DNA of 64,000 nucleotides, taken from Octopus vulgaris. Its lineage: Eukaryota. Location of the stretch: NCBI GenBank assembly GCA_951406725.2, contig OX597833.1:46438001-46502000 (forward strand). Reading direction: 5' to 3'. This document shows positions 4,331 to 41,029 of this stretch, piece after piece (the stretch's first letter is position 1; the number at the start of each line of letters is the position of its first letter). The notes under the pieces are model-generated. The model was given only the letters and a program-made list of their open reading frames with translations. It did not search any database and was not told the origin of the DNA. Made by a program: the position numbers and the translations under genes.

Positions 4331-4643
4331 CTTAGCTTAACTACGTGGAGAGGAACCAACAAGATTTAATTTCTCATTGCAATTATTTCAGAGATTTCCT
4401 GCGTGCTGTAGCGATAATCCTTAATCATCAGTGGTCAGGTTTCTTTAAGCAAATAGCCCAGCCTTGCCACTAACCCACGAAATTAAAACGCCAGAGTGAA
4501 GTAGGTCTTCCGGCGCAGATCAGTCTCATTATTACTTGGCTCCTGCGAAAGTTCTGTCTCAAGTTTCCTGAAACTACAAACAGACGGCGGATATTTTATT
4601 GCAGCGGTCGAGGAAAATCGCACGTGTACAAAAATCAAATACC

Positions 4644-5053
4644 TATTTCTTTATTACCCACAAGGGGCTAAACATAGAGGGGACAAACAAGGACAGACAT
4701 AGGTAGTAAGTCGATTACATCGACCCCAGAGCGTAACTGGTACTTAATTTATCGACCCCGAAAGGATGAAAGGCAAAGTCGACCTCGGCGGAATTTGAAC
4801 TCAGAACGTAGCGGCAGACGAAATACCTATTTCTTTATTACCCACAAGGGGCTAAACACAGAGGGGACAAACAAAGACAGACATAGGTATTAAGTCGATT
4901 ACATCGACCCCAGTTCGTAACTGGTACTTAATTTATCGACCCCGAAAGGATGAAAGGCAAAGTCGACCTCGGCGGAATTTGAACTCAGAACGTAGCGGCA
5001 GACGAAATACCGCTAGGCATTTCGCACGGCGCGCTAACGTTTCCGCCAGCTCG
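4644..5053 (-). mobile_element. SINE family 1 (tRNA head + Nin/Deu-like core), internal 184-bp dimer
   Basis: Core GCCTTTCATCCTTTCGGGGTCGATAAATTAAGTACC. 15-bp TSD CAAAAATCAAATACC at 4629-4643 and 5054-5068. Confidence 0.9.
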
Positions 5054-6001: not shown

Positions 6002-6947
6002 TTCGTGTTGCTTTGTTATGAACTTCACCCTTTGTAATATGATAAGCATACGTTACTCCCCACGAGTACCGAGGTCGATGAAAACAGTTCTCGGTCCTCC
6101 AGCATGGCCGTAGTCAAATGACTGAAACAAGTAAAAGAGTAAAGAGAGAGTAAGAAAGGCTACAAATCCACTACACTTGTCAGGGATGGCGCTCTAGAAA
6201 GTCACGAATCGATTGCACGATTCAGCTGCCCACTTTTGCCTTTTTGATAAAGCGGGAGCATCATCTCCTAATATAGGAAGCATGTCAGTATGAATGACTT
6301 TGAAGACAAAATCCTTTCTCTTCAAATTTTGTCCATTTACAAGAGAAGTCGCTACTTGCTACTTTTGAAGTGTTCTTTGAATAGTGTAATGTCAGTTTAC
6401 CTAGAAACAATTCAGTTATTAATAAAAAAAAAACAGTTGAAATTGAAGCATGTAACATTTCACAGCTCTAGAATCCCTCATTCATAGACAACCTATGAAC
6501 CTTTCAGCCCACCCTCGTACTTCCTCGAGCACTACTCCTTGAAGTGGGATCATATATTGGCTATATTATTCTGATCGGTGCTCCAGCAAGGCTACAAATA
6601 ATCCACAGCCCGAAAAGCCATTAAAATACTATCTCCTTATTTCTATTGAAGTGCGAAACACTGAAATTTTTATCAGATATATCAAAATATTTCGTTTGAA
6701 TTCTCTACTCTCTTTGGCCGTCTCAAACAATTTTATGTATGGTACGTTTATTTCTAGCTTTAAAAGAAACTCGTGTCAGCCCGTGTCAACTGGGTATATA
6801 TCACCTTGGTAACGGAAGTCGCAAAGAATAATCCCAAATTCTCGGGGACTTTAATTGCAGTCACACATCAGCAAACACACAAATACACGCAAACGTGTAC
6901 ACACACACTCACACACACACATGCATACGAAACCGACCTATACACAC

Positions 6948-7015
<68 letters not shown>

Positions 7016-8498
7016 ATGTGTGTGTGTATTTATATATGTATCTATCCACATATATATACACACACAACATACATACACATATTCACAGAATATTTTGTGT
7101 ATTTATGTGTGCAAGTGTGTGCATATATATGTATATTTGTAGCATGTATGTGTGCGTGTACGTGTGCTTGAATTTGTGTATATTTATATGCGTACGTGCA
7201 TGCATACATACGCGCGCGCGAGCGCGCCACTGTGATGAATAAACAGATTCGTTAGATCGTAGGACAACATACCTAGCTAGCATTTGTTACCATTTTCTAC
7301 ATTTTGAGTTCAAATCCTGCCGAGGTCAAATTTAACTTTTCTCATATTAGAGTCTGTAAAATAGTTACCAGTCAAAGGACGTTGATTGGTGATCGTATGT
7401 CTTTTGATATCTTTAGTGTCCTGCAATATTATGACATTAATAACTGGCCACACTCCATCTGTCTGTACTGTGGGAAACGGATCTGTTCCTTATGTAGTGT
7501 GGTTCTCCGTCCAAGTGCCATATTTGTCTGTCCTATATAGTTATGTCTACAACCTGAATAAGTTATAACACATTAAATTCCCGGAAGCACAAGTGAAGCT
7601 GGTTTTAATTGTGAAGCTTTCCCCCTTGTTTGAATAGGAATTCCGAGACTTCCAGTAGGTTTAAATAAAGAAAATCTATATATCGGAAAATACAGAACAC
7701 GCCTAAGTATGAACGCATAACTAGCTTTGATCTCAGAATATATTTTAATTCATGATCATTTAGCCATCACTGTACATATTTCATCTCACTACTTCAGCTT
7801 TTGAGTTTTTGTATATTCATTTATCCTCTCCCCAAAAATATAATAATGATCATCAAATCCATCCCCTTAGATTTTTCTACTTGTTAATACATTAACAGAC
7901 TCACAAACTTCCACACACATGGACCAAAATCTTCTCAAGAAAATACGAAATTACAACTTCAATGTCAAGATTAGCGAAAGCGAAACCGGTTGACATACAC
8001 ACTCTTTCATATATAAAACATTCTTTACGCGCGTCAGCGAACAAGTCACATGGTCACATTGAATATTCTTGTTTCCACAGTAAACATTTGCCCTCAAATA
8101 TATTGAGTTAATGCTAAGGAAGAGAGAATCCAATAGGTTTGCCAAACGTACAATACACACACACACACACATACATACATACACCCACGCACAGACATAT
8201 ATAAAGCACAACAAATCAGGAAACTTCATAACATATTTAGTTACTCCATCTTATGCGAATTTCATTAACAATGAAAAATATCAGATTTATAACAAAAATC
8301 TTAAAGCAGATTGCATTGTCAAATCTTCAGAGATTGCATGACTCTCATTTGTAATCGTTAGTTTTCATACAGGACTGGTGACACTGTTATTTATGGACTA
8401 TTACAACAGTTACATGTATATATATATAAACGAACACGCAATCCAACGAGAAAAGTATAAATCCATCCATACATACATACATACATATATATATATAT

Positions 8499-8646
<148 letters not shown>

Positions 8647-8828
8647 ATGGAGGAATGGATGGATATATACATTTTTTTGCTGGATTGCGTGTTCGTTTCT
8701 CTTTTTGCCATCTGTGATTTTATTTTTGATCTTCTATATAAACAAAGATATTTCCTTCGTCTGGCTGCTTTTCTTTCTACAAAACGAGAAGTTACATTGC
8801 GGAACTGTTATTTTTAACGAGTTGTATT

Positions 8829-8946
8829 TATTTATCACCCGACGAGATACATCTACACCACCGGATGCTCCTGAAGCAGTTGTTCAATGTCCCATCCATG
8901 AGGGATCGATGCTAGATGTGTGGAAACAATCGTCGTGATTAATAAT
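8829..8946 (+). ncRNA. Type I HHR with long stem II insertion (within an element of ~8650-8984 ending at TA tract)
   Basis: ATCAC-CCGACGA-G-ATACATCTA...(57 nt)...TAGATGTGT-G-GAAAC-AATC-GTC-GTGAT. Confidence 0.7.
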
Positions 8947-9082
8947 AAATTATCGTATACTCCTTCTTCCGGCTTTCATTTACCATATATATATACATAC
9001 ATACATACATACATACACACACATTTATATACATATGTATATATATATATATACATGTATATATCCCATACACACACATACT

Positions 9083-9174
<92 letters not shown>

Positions 9175-9671
9175 CATACATATAATATATATGTGTATAT
9201 ATATATATATTTGAATGGTTGTATATATGCATGTGTACATACATATATACATCTATATGTATAAGTTTCTATATATGCATTTGTGTGCATCTGTGGGAAT
9301 GTCAGCATACAAACACACACATACACACACACATACACACACATACACATACATGCATACATACACATATGCGGTGTACCGAATTAAGGAAGTGTTACGT
9401 AAATCTGCCGTCCTTGTGTCAGGTGATTCTACGTAATTAATTAATATAAAACAGTTGCTTTTATATAAATGTGCGTGTATATGTTTGTCTGTTTTATGAA
9501 GGGTACATACGCAGTCTAATATAGCTATATATGCTTTTTAGCCCTTGTTACGTTTATGTGTGTGTGTGTGTGTGTGTGTGTATGCGCGAACCCGCGGAGA
9601 CTTGTATAAGAATGTCACGTATGTGGCCATGTGTCCGTATGTGTTAATTGAATTTATGTATGTATGTGTGT

Positions 9672-9726
<55 letters not shown>

Positions 9727-9861
9727 CTCCTATGAATGTGTATAGGAGGGATGTCTGTCTGCTTTAGTGTAGAATTATGTATACATGTTATTAGACACTC
9801 TGAACATATCAAACGCATCATTTCCTATTTCCGATAAACAAGAAAAACAAAAAACAAAAAC

Positions 9862-9932
<71 letters not shown>

Positions 9933-10066
9933 AGATGATGATGATGAAAATAATAAAGAATTCCGGGATTTAACGACATAAAAGCGGATATACCCTCTTT
10001 CTGAATTAATACGTTTTACATACATCTATCTACGCATGTTTACGAGTTCTCATATATATATATATA

Positions 10067-10108
<42 letters not shown>

Positions 10109-10237
10109 GTGTGTGTGTGTGTGTGTGTATACATATATATATATATATATATATAAACACAAATATACATACGTTAATATATATAAATACCCATGTACAC
10201 TTGCATACATAGAAATATGCATACATGTATATATGTA

Positions 10238-10351
<114 letters not shown>

Positions 10352-11098
10352 TGCATGTATTTCTGTGTGTATATATTACACATACACGCGGGCGCTCATG
10401 CACATACACACACATACACACACGAGGGGGTGTTTTTGGTAAAAGAAAATACAGGGACATCAGTTATGATTTTACTCAACCTATTCCTCTTCTCAGATTC
10501 ACACACTTATTGCAGCGGTCCTTCAGTTTTTCTAAGCCCAGTAAAAGAACTTGAAAGGTTGGGCGTCCAATCAGGCCTTTCGCAATAACCTAAAAGCCAA
10601 GAACTATTCAGCAACTACTCGTACATATATGTATTTTCTCATATTCACACAGAAACATTGACCTGTATGTATATATGTTTGCAGGCCATAATGCGTGTAT
10701 AGTATATCTCTCTGTATGTATACGCGTATTGCGGGTTTACATATGTGTATTACGCACATTTTGAAATCTATTTAACTATGCAAACAGAAGTGTCATATTT
10801 TTTTTCCTCTCAAAATAGCAGACACTAAATTACTATACCATTCTGAGAAATAATTTAGCAACCAGCAACGTATCACCAACGCCGCCGCCTCTCTGCTGTA
10901 ACCTCCCTCTACACACCGCCACCACGAGATCACCATCATTACAGACATAATCCTACGCTATGATAAACTAACAGTTAACTCTGTTACAGTAATCCTGCAA
11001 CGTAATAAACCATTCAAGTAGCCCACCAAAAGCATTAGATCTATATTTCGATCATATGTACATATACGCACACATAATGCATACACAAACACACACAC

Positions 11099-11174
<76 letters not shown>

Positions 11175-11176
<2 letters not shown>

Positions 11177-11369
11177 CCTCGTGAAGACCACTTGCATTTT
11201 TTTCCCTCTGTCCTCCCACCTCGGGATCTTTCTTTCTCCTATGTTTCCGACGAAGAGCTCCGCTCGAAACGTCATACCCTCCTTCTTCCCTTCTTTCCTG
11301 AGCGCCCAATAATACTTTATTTGTTCCACATCCTCGCGTTGTCTTTTTGTTTTCTTGTTTGGATTAACT
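11175..11369 (+). mobile_element. Family A element, minimal HHR at 11243-11277
   Basis: GTTT-CCGACGA-A-GAGC-tcc-GCTC-GAAAC-GTC-ATAC. Close relative of 43039-43230. Confidence 0.75.
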
Positions 11370-11370
11370 T

Positions 11371-11900
<530 letters not shown>

Positions 11901-11902
11901 AA

Positions 11903-11966
<64 letters not shown>

Positions 11967-12056
11967 ATATAAATAAAATATATATATATAAACACACGCA
12001 CACACATATATGCATATATACATAAATATATATACATATATATATATATGTATATA

Positions 12057-12195
12057 GTGAGAATTTACAAAAAAAAAGCAAAAGACGAAGACGGGTATGT
12101 AAACAACAAACATGTATTAGTTTAATGCTCGGGAAGTGAGAAAGTCTTTTACATTTTGAGCCTATGCTCTTCGACGGAAAGGAACACAGAAATAA
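12057..12195 (-). mobile_element. Family A element, degenerate HHR
   Basis: Minus strand: CTTT-CCGTCGA-A-GAGC-atag-GCTC-AAAAT-GTA-AAAG. Homologous to 3218-3365. Confidence 0.65.
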
Positions 12196-12253
12196 ACATA
12201 CTAACCTTGCCCTTCATTTTAACACTAATTCTGGAGTTTCTACGCTAATGTGG

Positions 12254-12310
<57 letters not shown>

Positions 12311-12520
12311 GTTCTTTATTACAGACTAATATCTGTGACTAGCTGCCTTGTTTAAGTTTGTTTACAACGAATATACAACACTTGTTGCTGCTGTTGAGTT
12401 ATTTATGCCTCTCTGCATAAATGGCCAAATGTGATGTTATCAGCAATGCTTTTCTTTTTACTTCTGTTTAAGAAATTGGAATAAAAAACAAACAAAGCAA
12501 AGAAAAAACTATATTATCAG

Positions 12521-13055
12521 CCATGGCTGTGGTTCAAAAGCTTGCTTTACAACCATGTGGTTTCGGGTTCAGTCCCTCTGCACAACACTTTAGGCCAGTA
12601 TATTCCACTTTTATAGCCCTGGGCTGGCTAATGCTTGAGAATGAATTTGGTAAGCGGAAACTGTGTGGAAGCCCGTCGTTTATATGTGGCTGTGCGGTAA
12701 GAAGCTTGTTTCCCAACCACATGGTCCCGGGTTCAGTCTCATTGCGCGACACTTTGGGCAAGTGTCTTCTATTATAGCCTCGTATTAACCAAAGCTTTGT
12801 AAGTGGATTTCGTAGACGGAAACTGAAAGAAGCCCGTCGCATATATGTGTGTGTGTCTTTCTGTCTGTATTTGTCCCCTCATCACCGGTGTCGGTGTGTT
12901 TACGTCCCCGTATGTTAGTGTTTCGGCAAAAGTGAAACGATAGAACAATACTGGGCTTTAAAATATATGTCCTGGGGTCGATTTGTTCGACTAAAACCTT
13001 TCAAGGTGATGCTCCAGCATGGCTGCAGTCAAATAACTTAAGCAAGTAAAAAGAC
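12521..13055 (+). mobile_element. SINE family 2 with duplicated head
   Basis: Two successive heads (12521, 12686) followed by the tail. Confidence 0.8.
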
Positions 13056-13061
13056 AAAAGG

Positions 13062-13112
<51 letters not shown>

Positions 13113-13804
13113 TGTGTGTGTGTGTGCGTGCGTGCGTATGAGTATGTGTGCGTATATGTGTGTCAGTGTGTGTGCAAGCGTATGTGTGTGTGCGTGTAAG
13201 TGTGTGTGTGTGCTTGTATGTGTATGTGTGTGTGCGTGTATGTGTATGTGTGTGTGCATGTGTGTAGTTTAACAAATTACACTATTACGCAATCCAATAA
13301 ATTTTAAATACAGCAAATGCTTTTCTTATTTATATTATTTTGTATTTTATTACCATTTTCGCTATGTTTACGAAAATCTCTCTCATTATTCCTGTAATTC
13401 TATTCCTGATTATGAAATTCCAGCGCCGTTTTATGAAAGACTTCTTTGTTTTCCTCGCAGTTTATCTTTTTTTTCTTTTCTATTTTTACATGTTCCTTTC
13501 ACTCGAATCTGCCTACTACGCTTTTATTAGATTTTAGACATGCATTTATATAAATATATATGAACGTGTGTGTGTGGTGTGTGTGAATGTGTGCGTGTGC
13601 ATGTGTGTTTGTACACATACACACACATACGTTCATACATTCATGTTTACAATTTATACATACATACATACATACATACATACATACATACAAAAATGTG
13701 TGTACATATGTGTGTATGTGCATATCTTATCTATCTATCTATCAACCTATCTTGTTATCTATCTATTTATCAAACTTATGCAACTACCTATCTATTTATC
13801 TATT

Positions 13805-13864
<60 letters not shown>

Positions 13865-13878
13865 GTTTGTGTGTCTAA

Positions 13879-13914
<36 letters not shown>

Positions 13915-14009
13915 ATATATATATATCTATTTATCTGTATGTCTGTCTGTCTGTCTGTCTGTCTGGACAAACATAATCTGTTTTCCCTTTTTACATTGAC
14001 ATTTCTGTG

Positions 14010-14226
14010 ATACACGATCCCTATTGATCGGTCCCACTTTTTTTTTCACACGATCCCTTTTGATCGAAATTCTCCACCCCCACCCCACCCCCATTTTTTT
14101 TCTTTCACGATCCCTTTTGATCGGAATTCGCCCCCATTTTTCCTCCTTCTCTTCTTCCCAACTAGAAAAGCTCTACTTTGTATTTTGTACCTTCTGTGTT
14201 TAGCCCTGCGTGGCCAATAAAGAAAT
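14010..14226 (+). mobile_element. Tx1-like LINE 3' UTR fragment ending in (CTAT)n, with three ACGATCCCT(A/T)TTGATCG repeats
   Basis: Tail TGTGTTTAGCCCTGCGTGGCCAATAAAGAAA matches the LINE end at 61098-61127. Confidence 0.6.
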
Positions 14227-15463
14227 CTATCTATCTATGTATCTCGCGGGTCAAAATATACTTTAAAACTCCAATCAGAAGACATGTACGCAGTCATACA
14301 TCTATACATGCATCTACCCATGAATACATATATACACCATCATCATCCTTCGATTGCACAACCAATCCCAACCAATCGGTATTCACAGTAGAGGTTGTAC
14401 TATTCATCCTTTCGATCGCTGAACACACAAAAAATGACTCGCGTGACCTTCGTTCGGGTGATTTTCCTGAGTCGTGTGGGCACCAATCCGACCCATTTTC
14501 AGATGAATGGATTAGAGTAGCGTTGACGGAAGTGTTTGGCTCATCGAAACCGTGACCTTGCGATTGTGAGAACAACGTCCTACCCATTAAGCCTCTCGCC
14601 TTCACATGCTAGTTAACCCATACCTGGGATCCTAACGGGTGCTACTACTCCGGGTTAGAATAGACCCGAGAACAATTGTGAATCAGAGGTGATTCCACAC
14701 TCCTTAAAATCCTGCGACTTCCGATCCAGGTTCCCACTACGGGATGCAGTTGAAAGTCATACACATACATACATACATACATACATACATACATACATAC
14801 AAACATACATACATACATACATACATACATACATACATACATACATACATACATACATACATACATACAGAGGCATTCATCTCGTCATACACACACATCC
14901 CAATAAATAATACATAACAATGGATAGTAAGAATTTATTACTGCTATATAAGCATTATTTCTATCTTTATCTTCAAGTAAACTTGAGTGAAGACGAGTAC
15001 CAACTAACTACTGGTGCAACCCTCTCCCATTCTCATGCTGCGTGTTCCACAGGGTCAAGGATGGGAAGACCAAGAGAGCGTCTGTCTGCTACGGAGGAGC
15101 TCAAAACAGAGCGAAATCACGTGATCTGCAGCTCCGACAGTCGTAGCAGCAGGTTCTTCTCTGTTAGCGATATAAATACTAGTACTTTTATGTACCACGA
15201 GTTCATTATAAGAGGTTTTCTGAAGGTAAACAACACTGTATTATGTGTTCTAATACAACATCCAATTGAGTTGGAGATAAAAATTGCTTTTCAGTTTAAT
15301 AGGCTTCTTTCGTTATGTGTGTGTGAGTGCACGTGTGTGAGGGCGCGCGTGTGTGTGTAATATGTATGTATGCATGTATGTATGTATGTATGTATGTATG
15401 TATGTATGTATGTATGTATGTATGTATGTGTGCATGCATGTATGTATATATGCACACTTACGT

Positions 15464-15497
<34 letters not shown>

Positions 15498-15516
15498 TTA
15501 CTACCTACAGAGGTAG

Positions 15517-15612
<96 letters not shown>

Positions 15613-15931
15613 TTATACACATACTTACATGCCTGCATGCGCGCACGCTTGCATGCCTTCATATTTATATATAAACATACATGCCTATAGTTGACTATGT
15701 TAGCAAATTTTTAAATGACACATTCGAAATCTAGTGTTTTTGCAAGCAATGAAACAGACCATCTAACAATCACTTAACAAATACAATATGTAAGCAATAC
15801 AAATGCGAAACTTTTCTAAAGTTCAACTTATAGCATTTATCCCTCCTAATTACCAGCAACGATGGTGTCTCAAGCGCGGGCGTGTTTCTTTGTTTGAAGC
15901 CAGTTTTTTCCTCATAAGAATCCAAAAAATA

Positions 15932-16150
15932 AGGCAGAACCGTTAGCACGCCGGGCGAAATGCGTAGCCGTATTTCGTCTGACGTTACGTTCTGAGTTCA
16001 AATCCCGCCGAGGTCAACTTTGCCTTCCATCCTTTCGGGGTCGATAAATTAAGTACCAGTTACGCACTGGGGTCGATGTAATCGACTTAATCCGTTTGTC
16101 TGTCCTTGTTTGTCCCCTCTATGTTTAGCCCCTTGTAGGTAATAAAGAAA
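15932..16150 (+). mobile_element. SINE family 1
   Basis: Full core and tail. CATAAGAATCC flanks both sides. Confidence 0.9.
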
Positions 16151-16286
16151 CACATAAGAATCCCAATAATTAAAAATCAAAGTCATACATACACACATAC
16201 ATACATACATACATACATACATACATACATACATACATACATACATAGACATTTGAACAGTGTTTCACTGTGATTGTTATTATATT

Positions 16287-16634
16287 CAGTCCCACTGCGT
16301 GGCACCTTCGGTGAGTGTCTTCTACAGTAGCCTCGGGCCGACCAAAGCCTTGTGAGTGGATTTGGTAGACGGAAACTGAAAGAAGCCCGTCGTATATATA
16401 TATGTGTGTGTGTGTGTATTTGTGTATATGTGTTTGTCCCCCAACATAGCCTGACAACCGATGCTTGTGTGTTTACGTCCCCGTAACTCAGCGGTTCGGC
16501 AAAAGAGACCGATAGAATAAGCGCTAGGCTTACAAAGAATAAGTCCTGGGATCGATTTGCTCGGCTAAAAGCGGTGCTCCAGCATGGCCACAGTCAAATG
16601 ACTGAAACAAGTAAAAGAGAGTAAAGAGTAAAGA
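16287..16634 (+). mobile_element. SINE family 2, 5' truncated
   Basis: Homology to 50795-51270. Confidence 0.9.
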
Positions 16635-16679
16635 GATATGGTAATATTTTCAGTGACCACTTTAAATCTTTTTTGTTGA

Positions 16680-17240
16680 AGATATCTGGAGGATTCATGA
16701 GCGACTCACTGAAAGACAAAAACAATAACTTTATTGCTTCTCGTGCACAATCTAGAAGAATATGCTAATAATGTTAGTCTTATTAAGAGTATTGCTCTAG
16801 GTATGACATTCTTAAAAGATACAGGGATGGAGCTTGGCCAGGATGAATATTCTAACAGACTGTAAAAAAGTGGGAAGAACTTCAACTTAATTTCAGAACC
16901 AACCACTGGTGTGATTATTTCTCCGATTTCTGTGGAGGAGTGTCGCAGATATATCGGAATGGATAGAAATATCATACGAAGGCATTTGTCACAAAAGATA
17001 CACGGATGGAACTTAGCCAGGGTGAATATTCCTAACAAACTGTAAAAAGTGGGAAGAACTTCAGTCTAGTTTCAGAACCAACCACTGGTGTAATTATTTC
17101 TCCGATTTCTGTGGAGGAGTGTCGCAGATATATCGGAATGGGTAGAAATATCATACGATGACATTTGTCACAAGGAATGCGTAAAAAGGGATTATTACAT
17201 CCGGATAAACAATATGTGAATCTCAGAGCTCTCTACATAC
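16680..17240 (+). pseudogene. Degenerate non-LTR RT fragment (possibly R4/Dong-like) with ~179-bp tandem duplication
   Basis: IISPISVEECRRYIGMD occurs twice, then KKDYYIRINNM*ISELS. Resembles YKYLG...KEYxxRxxxIxxSEL of R4-type RTs. Confidence 0.35.
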
Positions 17241-18150: not shown

Positions 18151-20013
18151 TTCTATTCCTATGCAGATAAGCATAGGTCCGCTGTCTCACCCGTCGATTC
18201 ACTGATCGGTGATAACGGTATTTTCCAACATGGTACTAAAAGAAATGGCAGAAGTACTGCAAAAACCATACTGCTCTGTCTTTAGTGATCTCACTGATAC
18301 TGACCTAAGGGATGTGAATGAAGTTGATTCTCAACATATAATCGTGGACATAACCTTTACTGCTTCAGATATCATAGCAGCAATAAATGACATCAAATAC
18401 TATTCTGCTGTAAGCTCTGATAGATTCCCCGCTAGTTTCCTGGTAGAATGTAGACACCAATTTGTAGTCCCTATATCCGACCTCTTGAGAAATTCTTAAA
18501 ACTCAGGTTATATACCGAAACAGCTCTTATCCCAGTTTGTCATCCCGGTTTTCAAACAGAGAAACAGATCCTTCGCAGACAACTATCGCCCAATTTCACT
18601 CACTTCCCATATCATTAAAGTGTTTGAAAGGTTGGTGAGATCAAGGATAGCTTCCTGGAGAGCTACAATCTCCTAAATTAAAACCAGTAGGGGTTTCGCT
18701 GCGGCAAAGACTGTCTAACACAGCTCTTACACCACATCGATGATCTCGTTAAAGCCTTGGGATCAGGTTCGAACTCTGTTGTTATATATCTTGACAAAAG
18801 CGTTCGACAGAATCGGTCACAATGTCCTACTGTTGGAATTGTCAAATGCTGGAATCCGTGGAACACTACTACACTGGACTGAATATTTCCTGGAGAACAA
18901 AACACAAGTGATCGATGTGGTCCATTCAAGCCCAGTGGAAGCCACCGGTGGTGTCCCTCGGGAGATTGTCTTGGGCCCGCTCTTCTTTAGAGTCTATATA
19001 TACGAACTTTCCAGCGTCATAGAGCACAGCAGGGTGAGAATGTTCGTTGATGATTCCAAGTTCCAGAAAATTATCAATGGAGAAGACAGAATTGAACTCC
19101 AGTCTGATCTACATGCTGTGAGTCAATGGCCAGACAAAAACAAAATGCAACTAAACGAGAAAAAATTTGAGCTGATGTATTTTGGAAGAAAGAATATACT
19201 AAAACAGCCATACTCTCTTCCTTCAGGGGAGCCACTCACAGCAACTAATAATATCAGAGACCACGGAGTAATTGTTGACAGCAATCTCAGCTAGGATGCC
19301 CACATCAACAATAAGGTCGATATAGCTCGTAGGATGAACTCCTAGATCCTAAGAACCTTCCAGTCCAGGGAACAAGGTGTCATCATTCCTCTTTTCTCCT
19401 CTTTGTACGGCCACATCTCGAATACTGCTGCTCCCTGTGGTCTCCCCATACAAAACAAAATATTTCAAAAATTGAATCACCCTAGAGAGCATTTACTAAA
19501 AGAATTAAGGGCATGACTGATCTCGATTATTGGGACCACCTTAAAGCATTGAAACTTTATTCTCTCCAGCGCTGCCGTGAGCGATACATCATTTGTACGA
19601 TGTGGAGAATATACCACTAGCATTGCCCAAACGGCCGCAACATTAGCTTCAAAATTCATCCAAGGCTAGGACCACGGGCCATACATCCCCTACCCAATTC
19701 AGGATCACAGCACATAAATACACTGCAACACAGTTTCTTTTCCTCAACAAGCCCTGCCCGATTTAACATTGTTCCGAAACAGATCAAAGAAGAAAAGGAT
19801 CCGATCACCTTTAAACGGAATCTGGACAGATTTCTTCAAGGAATACCGGATAAGCCACCTATTCTGGATACAACACACTCAACAACAACTCCCTATTCTA
19901 AAGGACCATGAAACCATAAAACTTGACTTTAAAAGGATTTAGCTAATCCTATCAGGTGGTGCTATTAAGTTAGGCATGGCCTGGACCAATCTTTGGTCGA
20001 AACATATCTAAGT
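18150..20013 (+). pseudogene. CR1-clade LINE ORF2 (RT) and 3' UTR, 5' truncated, many stops and frameshifts
   Basis: NYRPISLTSHIIKVFER, Q*GFR, KAFDRIGH, GVPREIVLGPLFF, MFVDDSK, IRDHGVIVDSNLS, VRPHLEYCCSLWSP, LYSLQRCRER. Confidence 0.92.
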
Positions 20014-25402: not shown

Positions 25403-25433
<31 letters not shown>

Positions 25434-25649
25434 GCAATAATAATTCTCTAAATGAGATATAGACAGTAACTGCTCCATAACATAAGGGACTAAAGCCATC
25501 TGAATATGGCTAGGGACAGGGCAGGGTGGTAGGGGTGTTACTGTTGCATTTAGCCCCAGGCGAACATCAACGTCGCCAGATAGGCTTGACACCATCACGG
25601 CGTCCTCTATCCTGCAAAGGGAGATAATTCACCGATGAAGCGGAAACCA

Positions 25650-25694
25650 CACACGGACCTAGGTTTCAAGGTGTTTGCCTATTATCAACGTATG
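25650..25694 (-). ncRNA. Type I HHR (U3-A8 core)
   Basis: CATACG-TTGATAA-T-AGG-caaaca-CCT-T-GAAAC-CTAG-GTC-CGTGTG. Confidence 0.8.
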
Positions 25695-26066
25695 GTAGGC
25701 ACCGCTTCCTCGACGAACAACTCACTCTGCAGGATATTTATATATAGATTTTCAAGCAAAATACATTTGCTGATTTCGAAAATCTGTTCGACAGCAATAA
25801 TAATTCTCTAAATGAGATATAGACAGTAACTGCTCCATAACATAAGGGACTAAAGCCATCTGAATATGGCTAGGGACAGGGCAGGGTGGTGGGGGTGTTA
25901 CTGTTGCATTTAGCCCCAGGCGAACATCAACGTCGCCAGATAGGCTTGACACCATCACGGCGTCCTCTATCCTGCAAAGGGAGATAATTCCCCGATGATT
26001 TTGCTTGAAAATCTATATATAAATATCCTGCAGAGTGAGTTATTCGTCGAGGAAGCGGTTGCCTAC

Positions 26067-26111
26067 CATACGTTGATAATAGGCAAACACCTTGAAACCT
26101 AGGTCCGTGTG
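26067..26111 (+). ncRNA. Type I HHR (U3-A8 core), predicted cleavage after 26105
   Basis: Same motif as 25650-25694. Palindromic loop III (CTAG). Confidence 0.8.
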
Positions 26112-26474
26112 TGGTTTCCGCTTCATCGGGGAATTATCTCCCTTTGCAGGATAGAGGACGCCGTGATGGTGTCAAGCCTATCTGGCGACGTTGATGTTCG
26201 CCTGGGGCTAAATGCAACAGTAACACCCCAACCACCCTGCCCTGTCCCTAGCCATATTCAGATGGCTTTAATCCCTTATGTTATATATATATATACATAT
26301 ATATATATGGTTACTGGCGCCCCAGGCAAGCTGAACTTTGGCGTGTACAAGCTGACGGTCGTGGAAATGTCCTTGTTTTTGTCACGCCCTCCTTGTCACC
26401 CTCTAGTACATGGCGCCCCGGGCGACTGCCCGAGTTGCCGGTACCTTGAGCTGGCTCTGGGTACTGCATTAGCT

Positions 26475-36404: not shown

Positions 36405-38198
36405 AAAATATATAGGTATGTCTATGTATGTGTGTGTGTTTGTGTCTGTCTTTGTGCTTGTGTTTGTCTCCCACCACTATTTGGCAACCGGTGTTGATTT
36501 GCTTCGGTCCCCCTAATATAGCAAAAATTCGCCAAAAGAATACGTCCCAAGTTTTAAAAAAATAAATGGTAGGATCGATTCGTTACACTAAAATCCAGTA
36601 TGGCCGCAGGTTAATGACTGAAACCAATAAAAGGTAAAAAGTTATGTATTTGTGTATGTTTATATGTGTGTGTGTGTATGTGTATATGTGTGTGTTTATT
36701 TTAACCAATTTAATATTAAGACAGTCGTATTTTCCAACAATATTTATGATTCGTATAAAATGTAGGTTTCATGCAAATCATAAATCTTAATTCTTTGAGA
36801 AGTAGAAGGAAACGAAAGGTAAACTGCTGAAAAAAATGATCACGCACGTAGCCATCTTCAAAGGAGATATGTGCAAGTACTTCGTGTTTTATAGAAATAT
36901 GCGATATTCTCTTTAACAAATGTCTGTACTGGAATTTAATAACTGGACTTTGTTATGGATGCCAAATTTGTTCTAAAATTTTCACCTCTACGTACTACAT
37001 ACACTTATTCATTCATTCATGTATTCATTCATTCATTCATATATACGTACATACATAAATTGTAAAGTATTTCAGGCATGCTCCGTGTGAGGTTCCTGAG
37101 TGAAACTAAGCACGCAATCACATATACACGCATGCACAATTATAAAGAGTAACTAAACATACATATACTTTTGATTTAACGTGATAAGTATACCCACAAG
37201 CGCAAGTTCATCCTCACGACTACACATATACTCGACACAGATGCACATATATACACATCAACCGATTCAGTTAAACTCAAGCCCAAAGAGCTTCATTTAA
37301 AAGAGCCTTACCACTTCCCGGCAAAGAAGAAACACATACTAACATACCTGCATACATATATACATTTAAACACACATGCATACATGCATGCATACACGAA
37401 TACATGCACATATAAATGCATGCATACATACGTTCATCTATGCATACATGCATACATACTTGCATGCATGCATACATTATGTACAGACATACATACATGC
37501 AGACACAAATACATACAAACATGCATACACATGCATACATACATACATACATACATACATACATACATACATACATACACACATACATACACGCATATAT
37601 ATTTGCGTGCATACATACAAGTATACATATATACATGCATCCATACATATACGCCTGCATAGACACATACATACATACATACATACATACATACATACAT
37701 ACATACATACATACATACATACATACATACATACATACGTAAATACATACACACATTCATACATACATGCACACATGTATGCGTATGGGAGCCGGTGTAT
37801 GTGCGTGCGTGCATATATATCTGTGTGTGAGAGGAGAGAATGAAAGAGCAAAGATGATTACTTTCTCCAACAGACAACGATTATAGTTATTTTTTTCTCG
37901 TTTATTCCACCAAAACTTTCGTAAACCACATTTCCCTCCTACCACTACCAACACAGCAGATCTCATCCGGCTTCCATTTCTCTAAAAAACACTTATAATT
38001 ACAATTAAACCTAATTACGTCATATGTAAACAAATATAGGTTTGTTTTTGAAGCGCTAAAATATATTGTGGTACAAGTATTTTTAACGTGTAAGTACTGA
38101 TAGAACAGCGTATATAGGAAAATCCTTATAGAGCAGAAAAATATGTCAGCAACCAGTCTGCTGACAGATTTTTCTGCTCCGTAAGGATTTTGTCCTAT

Positions 38199-38674
38199 TG
38201 AAATTTTGTGTCTAAAGTCCAACTGGTGACGTTGATCGCCTGGGGCTAAAAGCATCAGTAACACCCCACCCCCAGTGGCTAGCCACATTCAAATGGCTAG
38301 TACACCTTACGTTGTCGAGCGGTTACTGTTTATATCTTGTTCAGAGATTTATTAATGCTTTCAGACAGTTTTTCTAAATCAGTGACTGTGGTTGCTGTGA
38401 AAAACGTTAAATATTATTATTTGCAGAGGGTCTCCTTCATCGAAAACCGGTGTTTACCATGCGTTGACGAGAGGCAATTACCTTGAAACTATAGTCCGTA
38501 TGTATCACTTAGGTTTTCGAGGGAGGATGACCTCCCTTTGCAAATAACACAAGGGCACTGAAATTTTGTGTCTAAAGTCCAACTGGTGACGTTGATCGCC
38601 TGGGGCTAAAAGCATCAGTAACACCCCACCCCCAGTGGCCAGCCACATTCAGATGGCTAGTACACCTTACGTTA
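38199..38674 (+). mobile_element. Retrozyme-like element, 360-nt monomer x1.3, ending at TA tract
   Basis: 38201 = 38561. Diverged homologue of 25433-26283. Confidence 0.85.
38458..38502 (+). ncRNA. Type I HHR (U3-G8 core), predicted cleavage after 38496
   Basis: CATGCG-TTGACGA-GAGG-caatta-CCTT-GAAAC-TATA-GTC-CGTATG. Confidence 0.8.
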
Positions 38675-39036
38675 TATATATACTGTTCTATCAGTACTTA
38701 CACGTCAAAATATATATCTTTCTCCCTGTACTACAATAAATCTAACATTTATTCATAAGGCGATTATTTTCCTAATTGCCCTTCTTTTCATTTTTCTTTT
38801 CTTTTTTCTGTTTTATTGTATTTTATTCAGTTATTTCTTCTCTTTTTTCGATACAGACGATAGGAGACAGAACATCTGTTTAAGCTTTTCTGTCGCGACA
38901 CGACACACAACTTCCGGTCAAATACTATCTGAGTATATATTTGTTTACATGTATGAATGTGTAGTTAAAAAGTTCGCTTCTCATGACGCGGTTTCTGATT
39001 TGATCCCTTTACCTGGGAACTGAGTAGAAGTGAAAC

Positions 39037-39797
39037 ATCTTTATTGCCCACAAGGGGCTAAACATAGAGGGAACAAACAAGGACAGACAAACGACCCCAG
39101 TGCGAAACTGGTACTTTATTTATCGACCCCGAAAGGATGAAAGGCAAAGTCGACCTTGGCGGAATTTGAACTCAGAACGTAACGACAGACGAAATACCTA
39201 TTTCTTTACTACCCACAAGGGGCTAAACACAGAGAGGACAAACAAGGACAGACGAACGGATTAAGTCGATTACATCGACCCCAGTACGAAACTGGTACTT
39301 TATTTATCGACCCCGAAAGGATGAAAGACAAAGTCGACCTTGGCGGAATTTGAACTCAGAACGTAACGACAGACGAAATACCTATTTCTTTGCTATCCAC
39401 AAGGGGCTAAATACAGAGGGGACAAACAAGGACAGACAAACGGATTAAGTCGATTACATCGACCCCAGTGCGAAACTGGTACTTATTTAATCGACCCCGA
39501 AAGGATGAAAGACAAAGTCGACCTCCGCGGAATTTGAACTCAGAACGTAGCGACAGACGAAATACCTATTTCTTTACTAACCACAAGGGGCTAAACACAG
39601 AGGGGACAAACAAGGACAGACATAGGTATTAAGTCAATTACATCGACCCCAGTGCGTAACTGGTACTTAATTTATCGACCTCGAAAGGATGAACGGCAAA
39701 GTCGACCTCGACGGAATTTGAACTCAGAACGTAGCGGCAGACGAAATACCGCTAGGCATTTCGCCCGGCGTGCTAACGTTTCTGCCAGCTCGCCGCT
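39037..39797 (-). mobile_element. SINE family 1 tetramer (184-bp internal unit)
   Basis: GAAATACC recurs at 39191, 39375, 39559, 39743. Confidence 0.92.
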
Positions 39798-40243: not shown

Positions 40244-41029
40244 CTTGTTAAATTTCTTCCAGCCTCTTCATATTTTTAAAATTTTCACCAGATTATTTTG
40301 GAAACAAAAATGAAGTTCTAATATAATGTAAAGTATAGAAGCCATCTTATCATGGCTAACCACATTGGGGAGGGGGTATTACTGTAGCTTTATAGCCCCA
40401 AGAGATGTTCGTTTCTAGCTGGCTTTAGACACAATATCAGTGTCCTTGGACGAAGACGAAGATCTCTTGGGGCTATAAAGCTACAGTAACACCCCCTCCC
40501 CAATGTGGTTAGCCATGATAAGATGGCTTCTATACTTTACATTATCGAGCGATTACTGTTTCAATCTCATTCTGAGATTTAATTATGCTGAGTTCTAATA
40601 TAGTTTCAACGAAAATCGCATTCACTCTTTCTAAATAATAATGAAATAGTTACAAGTATCTAAAACTATGTAATTCTAGTCAATCGACGCCTCGATTACC
40701 AAATATACCAGAAGGTGTGACAGTTTGTTTCTATGGGAGCGGCACACGCGAAACCTTTACTTGATCTCACGATTTGCTAGAAATCGCAACCCAAGGGAAA
40801 AAACAGTGACGACTTCCGGTATATTCAGCAGTCAAGGCTTCGATTGGCTAAAACTCGTACATACTTGAAAACTGTTTTATTTATTAAGTTTTAGAAAAAG
40901 AGAAAGCGACTTTTCGTTATCAGCATGCGCAAACACATCATAACTACATTTTTTTCTGAATAAAATAATCTGGTGAAAAACTTGGAGTTGCTGGAAAAAA
41001 TTTAACAAGTTCCAAAGACCTTGATAAAA
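40244..41029. mobile_element. Old MITE with ~70-bp imperfect TIRs, host of the 40322 insertion
   Basis: CTTGTTAAATTTCTTCCAGC...TTTTCACCAGATTATTTT versus AAAATAATCTGGTGAAAA...GCTGGAAAAAATTTAACAAG. Confidence 0.65.
40322..40590. mobile_element. Truncated, inverted third member of the 360-nt family
   Basis: Arms 40322-40406 and 40462-40546. 12-bp TSD AGTTCTAATATA at 40314-40325 and 40591-40602. Confidence 0.8.

Follow-up and report, generated by a model that had tools for sequence, protein, structure and literature searches.

What kind of element occupies positions 38199 to 38673 of a 64,000-nucleotide stretch of Octopus vulgaris DNA, referred to here as the window? A preliminary description had noted two diverged copies of a repeat, near 25–26 kb and 38 kb. 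It proposed that both retain a paired RNA structure and a length of 360 nucleotides (nt), as viroid-like replicons do. Our analysis indicates that the second copy belongs to a non-coding, hammerhead-bearing repeat, most likely an animal retrozyme and not a viroid.

The element and its relatives in the window

The window holds members of three families of the repeat, named A, B and C. The copies, and the sequence into which the family A copy is inserted, are as follows.

38199..38673, plus strand: family A insertion, single arm, 5'-truncated (475 nt, 1.32 units of a 360-nt repeat)
38674..38681, plus strand: (AT)4 target run at the 3' junction, from sequence reading and relatives of the host repeat
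38081..38198, no strand assigned: left part of an older foldback (MITE-like) host repeat, outside the element, with its other arm at 38675-38710
25433..25998, minus strand: family B copy, long arm, 1.57 units, with a tailed 3' end in (TA)n and core U3-A8
25998..26284, plus strand: family B copy, inverted second arm, with a short 3' end in (TA)n
40324..40589, both strands: family C copy, two back-to-back truncated arms, with a short end on the minus strand and a tailed end on the plus strand

The span first proposed, 38199..38674, covers a real element, the true end of which is 38673. At this position the copy stops at the 'short' 3' end of its family (unit position 115). Nucleotides 38199-38313 recur as 38559-38673 (115 nt, 98% identity, spacing 360), and the copy contains one hammerhead motif. 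In the family B copy 206 nt are repeated, also at spacing 360. The reported divergence of these two copies is genuine (71.6% identity across 496 columns) and every motif quoted for them was found where it had been placed. The family C copy retains no hammerhead.

The family A element inserted into a short TA run of the older foldback repeat. Among relatives of this host repeat, the empty site holds a short TA run. A 36-nt inverted repeat flanking the locus was considered as the terminal repeat of the element and rejected; it belongs to the host repeat. The host repeat itself (window 38030-38198 and 38674-38730) has 241 first-look candidates at ~70–90% identity. Separately, the family B insertion has a 91-nt inverted repeat (98%; 25132-25222/25320-25410) as its immediate neighbour.

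A type I hammerhead motif

The ribozyme candidate lies at the tip of a long predicted rod.

38458..38502, plus strand: type I hammerhead motif, read from the sequence and by a fold constraint test
38417..38547, plus strand: long imperfect rod with the hammerhead at its tip (outer arms 38417-38430/38534-38547, inner arms 38440-38448/38512-38520)

Briefly, stem I is formed by 38458-38463/38497-38502 and stem II consists of four pairs, 38471-38474/38481-38484. The core is UUGACGA (U3.G8) at 38464-38470, with GAAA at 38485-38488. Stem III has two pairs and a palindromic loop (38490-38493), and the cut is predicted after 38496. A search of the window against Rfam yielded no match that reached the gathering score. 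Even at E<=10, neither this unit nor that of family G, with its canonical core, matched a hammerhead family. The motif is therefore called a ribozyme from the descriptor and its conservation.

A genome-wide search with the hammerhead pattern gave 1,814 exact matches, compared with 0 for a control pattern, and uncovered families D, E and F. Families A, B, C and G were found independently of the pattern, and the catalytic core is conserved in all four. Across six families the core is kept with variation at positions 3-8, which are C-G in family G and U.G or U-A elsewhere (U3.G8 in family A, U3-A8 in family B). U3-A8 is reported as a natural, active covariant (PMC3088659; PMC4209133); our literature search found no activity data for a U3.G8 core.

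Palindromy of loop III, first proposed from TATA in one window copy and CTAG in the other, extends to the whole clan. It was present in 187 of 197 motif matches, among which residual duplicates are possible, and takes the form of eight different palindromes. Weak palindromic stem III is a published sign of dimer-dependent cleavage (PMC4209133). In our ensemble calculation, the pairing probability of stem III in the monomer was <=0.0003. Stems I and II covary in an alignment of 22 sequences. Family C, which is very young, has a predicted cleavage triplet of GUU, not GUC (for example at locus L141).

A clan of short repeats of similar length

The clan comprises at least six families genome-wide, with representatives 47–91% identical (A-B 68%, A-C 73%, A-D 53%). 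In the 2.8 Gb genome, first-look candidates numbered 2,977 for family A, 1,496 for B, 1,555 for C and 2,620 for G; these are not copy numbers, and 40 were scored in each search. Best matches were 97–100% identical in families B and C, and 99–100% in C. Judged by such identities, the families are near-clonal bursts.

The longest stop-free frame in six family representatives is <=78 codons. Tandem arrays are short, with up to 4 units seen, and GC content is <50%. By the definition of a 2026 preprint (10.64898/2026.07.22.740005), an 'active' retrozyme locus has two or more complete ribozymes in succession. The 38199..38673 locus lacks such a pair; two ribozymes one period apart occur at 6 of 75 position-ordered motif loci of the clan. 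Hence, the family qualifies and the 38199..38673 copy is a truncated offspring. Neither a tRNA nor, with 2 mismatches allowed, a Pol III B box was found in the six representatives, where a single A-box-like match stands alone. Ahead of the rod (38407-38425) comes an AT-rich, TATA-like sequence and then an octamer-like word, with equivalents in families B, C and G. It could be a promoter or merely stem sequence. The unit is covered by contigs from presumed-RNA sequencing runs, one of them reaching across the unit junction; tandem DNA copies would look alike, so the contigs do not bear on expression.

The preliminary description took the retained 360-nt length as a sign of selection on size. Both window copies do show spacing 360. 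However, the commonest period is 355 in family A (9 of 28 arms, with 360 in 3), 360 in B, 357–358 in C and 362–365 in D, E and F. The shared 360 of the two window copies is therefore a coincidence. What stands is the narrow range, with a period of 353–365 nt in 83 of 89 arms. Pairwise indel-balance tests gave no further support for selection on size: 0 of 28 reached p<0.05, and indels balance no better than random.

Probable selection on the RNA fold

Folding of the unit as a circle had been suggested as a check. For the 38199..38673 copy this gave -111.0 kcal/mol (z -4.5 against 40 dinucleotide shuffles), and the 25 kb copy gave z -5.4. The minus strand was also more stable than shuffles (z -2.5 and -5.0). 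We then used an alignment-free test, in which real family representatives are compared with simulated neutral divergence of family A. Excess stability over mononucleotide shuffles was 23.5–36.9 kcal/mol in each of the six representatives. Family A copies mutated site-independently to equal divergence retained a mean of -3.6 to +0.8 (best of 56, -16.6).

Covariation was assessed with 22 sequences hand-picked from 57 full-length monomers. On this alignment, a 59-pair structure had 91.6% of cells paired and 25 of 59 pairs with two-sided change. Its covariation score was 0.395, compared with 0.182 for shuffles and <=0.107 for slid controls, the structure being derived from the same 22 sequences. 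A pair-count measure was not convincingly above shuffles (42/500). In the outer helix of the rod, 7 of 11 pairs had two-sided change. Counts of G.U against A.C were 11 vs 2 in families A-C and 16 vs 6 overall, using a structure from plus-strand folding.

For a non-circular test, one family was folded and another scored, in 10 comparisons. Folding A and scoring B kept 21 of 47 pairs (14.0 expected, p 0.01); A to B2 gave p 0.001 and A to C gave p 0.02. Folding B and scoring A kept 15 of 42 pairs (14.5 expected), which is not significant. The overall outcome was mixed, with 7 of 10 comparisons not significant. Register shifts within the rod probably contribute to the weak results.

The strongest signals of structure selection are in the ribozyme, at loop III and core positions 3-8. 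Together with the stability test, the pair counts and the G.U excess, they support the original proposal of selection on RNA structure, and the fold is very probably under selection. Particular pairings fared differently. The compensatory change reported for stem I is, between the window copies, a one-sided G.U change; two-sided change appears only across further families. CAGTAAC/GTTACTG and AGCCA/TGGCT are kept as described, but are identical in the window copies and so carry no covariation information between them. A proposed TGGGG/CCCCA pairing has a probability of <=0.001 in both units, the GGGGCT stretch pairing upstream instead. The same low value (<=0.001 in both units) disfavours an alternative, inactive fold via TGYYT/AGGCA.

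Insertions have the anatomy of Penelope-like elements

Two further features of the 38199..38673 copy concern its 3' ends.

38256..38328, plus strand: predicted branched 3' domain, closed by 38256-38262/38322-38328, with a hairpin at 38281-38285/38294-38298
38314..38361, plus strand: ~45-nt 'tail' segment with a terminal hairpin at 38334-38338/38344-38348, on a basis that includes the end census

The predicted 3' domain encloses the short 3'-end site, which is 38313 in the first lap and 38673 in the second. The end of the tail segment (unit position 157-163) is the second fixed 3' end of family A. For the end census, overlapping loci were removed (3 of 30 in A, 5 of 30 in B). Arms stopped at one of the two fixed 3' sites in 37 of 43 cases in A and 39 of 43 in B. 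These sites are ~45 nt apart; 5' ends are scattered. We infer that the short site and the tail end are each a start site for reverse transcriptase (RT).

The two ends are combined in a regular way. Among 100 position-ordered motifs, opposite-strand neighbours were head to head in 13 of 13 cases. A short end was combined with a tailed end in 46 of 47 classifiable two-armed insertions; a further nine such loci, where an arm stops at some other site, are not counted here. One insertion was short plus short and none was tail plus tail. By family, the short-plus-tail pairing was found in 11 + 7 loci of A (two of which are probably one duplicated insertion), 12 of 13 of B, and 16 of C, a set chosen for having a tailed arm. 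Of 39 family B ends, 37 run into (TA)n; of 37 in family A, 16 do so and another 15 are AT-rich. Individual copies show foldback rearrangements, for example at locus L102.

Hallmarks of Penelope-like elements (PLEs) are 5' truncation, partial tandems and an inverted 5' copy, along with a tail of 30-40 bp that is usually at one end (10.1101/2021.04.23.441226). Clan insertions include 5' truncation, partial tandems and an inverted 5' arm. When a PLE protein was studied in vitro, both strands of the target were cut and extended, and the tail was bounded by two internal RNA sites at which the RT starts (PMC11167929). We conclude that the ends, arms and targets of the copies are the insertion signature of a PLE.

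The template of copying

In a position-ordered sample of family A, 20 of 27 arms cross the predicted cleavage site and 8 exceed one unit. No pile-up of breakpoints was seen at the predicted cleavage site. No stop of reverse transcription was seen there; the cDNA reads through.

Successive laps within an insertion agree at diagnostic sites in 108 of 120 comparisons in A and 40 of 40 in B. Likewise, the two arms of one insertion agree in 74 of 80 comparisons in A and 34 of 34 in B. Random draws from the family would give roughly 45% (A) and 39% (B) discordance. The 12 of 120 discordant lap comparisons in A indicate that some insertions do not copy one homogeneous circle, being either mixed or altered by later mutation. 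Lap agreement would fit a one-unit circle, or jumps of the RT from one cleaved monomer to the next. Homogeneous uncleaved tandems would fit as well, and the genomic data do not separate these templates.

Candidate helpers in the genome

PLE open frames of 781 and 775 aa are each present in many near-identical copies. RT and GIY-YIG domains were confirmed in the 781-aa protein, which also has a cysteine linker motif like those reported from Neptune and Nematis. Both families have (TA)n ends of short and tailed types; for the 781-aa family, 13 of 18 ends were short and 5 tailed. This family also has a U3-A8 hammerhead-like motif near its end. These young PLE families were located at L178 (G000:C16:20835500-20841500), L238 and L246, and have long low-complexity 3' UTRs, (TA)n targets and tails of 30-40 nt. 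An upstream open frame of at least 327 codons precedes the 781-aa frame. In a third PLE family (L180:1321-4483), a 766-nt inverted arm is 100% identical and a hammerhead-like motif lies ~130 nt before the 3' end.

We compared the unit with 74 PLE loci, which come from a few dominant families and are a small sample of 6,136-16,965 first-look candidates; none has a 3' UTR or pLTR that resembles it. Copies of families C and G are not preceded by a long PLE ORF. A PLE is proposed as the partner on the insertion signature only. Two apparent links were rejected. Profile matches near PLE ORFs at L079, L180 and L242 were separate insertions, and motif pairs 1.4-3.6 kb apart, considered as a pLTR-ORF-pLTR arrangement, were host segmental duplications.

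Possible origins of the repeat

We conclude, with a probability of about 0.8, that the repeats are a clan of non-LTR retrozymes likely mobilised by PLEs. A PLE reverse transcriptase/endonuclease likely copies the repeat into TA-rich DNA. The following steps are proposed. The minority of loci with at least two tandem ribozymes would be transcribed. Two ribozymes would pair via palindromic loop III, cut, and release a monomer of ~360 nt; the single ribozyme of this monomer is predicted to be occluded. A host ligase would probably circularise the monomer, as published for mussel and axolotl retrozymes. A Neptune/Nematis-type PLE protein would bind the 3' domain and nick both strands of a TA run. 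One nicked strand would prime cDNA at the short site and its partner at the tailed site, and the cDNA would run through the cleavage site, often past one unit. Finally, the two cDNAs would join head to head, or a single one would survive as at 38199..38673. Having one ribozyme, this locus is unable to release a monomer alone. Likewise, with paired ribozymes at 6 of 75 motif loci, most copies could not do so. This scarcity speaks against the retrozyme reading, as do the negative Rfam results, the U3.G8 core of family A, the discordant laps, the negative comparison with 74 PLE loci and, in the published systems described below, the low rate of cleavage among Xenopus dimers and the dispensability of cleavage for the anole PLE.

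Identical end anatomy is expected if the repeat is a free pseudo-LTR, derived from a PLE but not autonomous, and if its template is a linear tandem transcript that has not been cleaved. In that case the hammerhead would be conserved for a structural or protein-assisted role, and circular RNA would be unnecessary. Passage of cDNA through the cleavage site without a breakpoint pile-up agrees with this origin, as do the discordant laps, and unprocessed RNA is the main insertion substrate of an anole PLE (PMC11167929). However, the palindromic loop and the core pair survive many substitutions, most simply through selection for dimer cleavage. Moreover, laps in A and B are mostly homogeneous at diagnostic sites, while serial copying of linear tandems should give lap-specific differences and shorter arrays. 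We consider such an origin unlikely. A DNA-level origin, in which self-complementarity is a by-product of template switching or foldback in a SINE or satellite mobilised otherwise, would account for rearranged copies such as L102. It is also compatible with the stability of the minus strand and with the non-significant majority of the non-circular comparisons. The plus-strand excess of G.U over A.C argues the other way, and so do the single-stranded catalytic core conserved in A, B, C and G, the fixed paired ends and the lack of a tRNA or a Pol III A and B box pair. We judge it very improbable.

Hammerhead viroids and viroid-like circular RNAs have a similar size, a rod-like fold, a hammerhead motif and a dimer-dependent stem III. 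A viroid-like replicon, copied from RNA to RNA and occasionally reverse-transcribed into the genome, would match the unit's size, fold, motif and narrow length range. In mussels, some circles match no genomic entry, and the possibility of RNA-RNA replication is mentioned (PMC7229834). Ribozymes in both polarities were not found in the octopus repeat; neither unit A nor unit B has a minus-strand hammerhead core, and no other Rfam ribozyme class matched. Unlike hammerhead viroids, the repeat thus has its ribozyme motif on one strand only, and it is genome-resident with retrotransposon-type ends. The near-clonal bursts all carry PLE-type DNA integration ends. The viroid-like inference of the preliminary description fails on these points, and we hold it to be very remote.

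A bolder form of the retrozyme reading is tentative, and we lean against it. Here, a long-lived clan of circular-RNA parasites without sequence kinship to a helper pLTR would recruit PLE proteins solely by RNA shape. In one concerted event, both nicked target strands would be primed, each at a different fixed site of one ~360-nt circle, with the RT rolling past unit length. If true, this would be the first genomic proof of animal retrozyme integration, and would also prove the two-ended PLE priming mechanism in vivo.

Relation to known systems

Mussel retrozyme repeats are ~350-390 bp and those of axolotl 330/350 bp (Cervera and de la Pena 2020, PMC7229834). Mussel retrozymes were shown to cleave and to accumulate as circles, and PLEs were proposed as helpers (PMC7229834). 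Like metazoan non-LTR retrozymes as described there, the octopus repeat is a short non-coding tandem repeat with <50% GC and thousands of candidate copies. It has one type I hammerhead per unit with a short stem III and palindromic loop, a highly paired predicted circle, and PLEs that co-occur. Unlike them, octopus loci mostly have fewer than two ribozymes, in arrays of up to 4 units, and the core is U3.G8 or U3-A8 except in family G. The PLE tail, inverted arms and TA targets of octopus copies have no counterpart that we found in the accessible portion of PMC7229834. Cleavage and circular RNA were demonstrated for the retrozymes of PMC7229834, whereas in the octopus clan both are predictions from genomic sequence.

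A recent preprint argues that retrozymes are non-autonomous PLE derivatives (Li, Clavereau, Pollet 2026, 10.64898/2026.07.22.740005). The argument draws, mainly for vertebrates, on the co-occurrence of the two and on homology to pLTRs. Of 57 retrozyme families in Xenopus, 24 matched known transposable elements, nearly all PLEs; when 9 predicted Xenopus dimers were assayed in vitro, only 1 cleaved. The proposed PLE partnership is shared with the octopus clan, for which the evidence is insertion anatomy, with no pLTR homologue found.

Compared with EN+ PLEs (Neptune/Nematis-type; anole Poseidon, PMC11167929), the octopus copies share 5' truncation, partial tandems, an inverted arm, a tail on one end, a hammerhead upstream of two 3' ends and AT/TA targets. 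For the anole PLE, cleavage is dispensable for insertion in vitro (PMC11167929). Unlike EN+ PLEs, the octopus repeat has no ORF, its tail is ~45 nt, compared with the 30-40 bp reported, and its putative start sites are 177 and ~222 nt downstream of the predicted cut. Hammerhead SINEs of Schistosoma (PMC6765202) are likewise short hammerhead-bearing retroposons, often in tandem; in contrast to these, six octopus family representatives have no Pol III A and B box pair.

Animal hammerhead repeats are already known, and their link to PLEs has been proposed from co-occurrence and pLTR similarity. Added here are the near-perfect pairing of short and tailed ends and an insertion anatomy that itself points to PLE machinery. 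We found no description of a cephalopod hammerhead or retrozyme, or of retrozymes with a PLE tail, in the literature searched, which was largely open-access main text. The words ribozyme and retrozyme are absent from the main text of a 2026 octopus repeat annotation.

The anatomy gives two likely priming sites at near-nucleotide resolution. Young families (97–100% identity) share one genome with PLE frames of 775 and 781 codons, which makes several questions testable: which enzyme mobilises animal retrozymes, whether its template is a circle or a multimer, and whether PLEs acquire their tail because each target strand is primed at a site of its own. The clan is also a natural series of core variants (C3-G8, U3.G8 and U3-A8) and of eight palindromic loops for ribozyme assays.

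Other repeats of the window

A tandem repeat with a 184-bp unit, which we take to be an octopus-type SINE, occupies 4637-5011 and 39092-39750 and is extremely abundant in four sequencing runs. At 16814-17173 there is a two-copy tandem repeat of period 179. Lastly, a 191-codon frame at 18719-19294 resembles, by eye, a fragment of a LINE reverse transcriptase.
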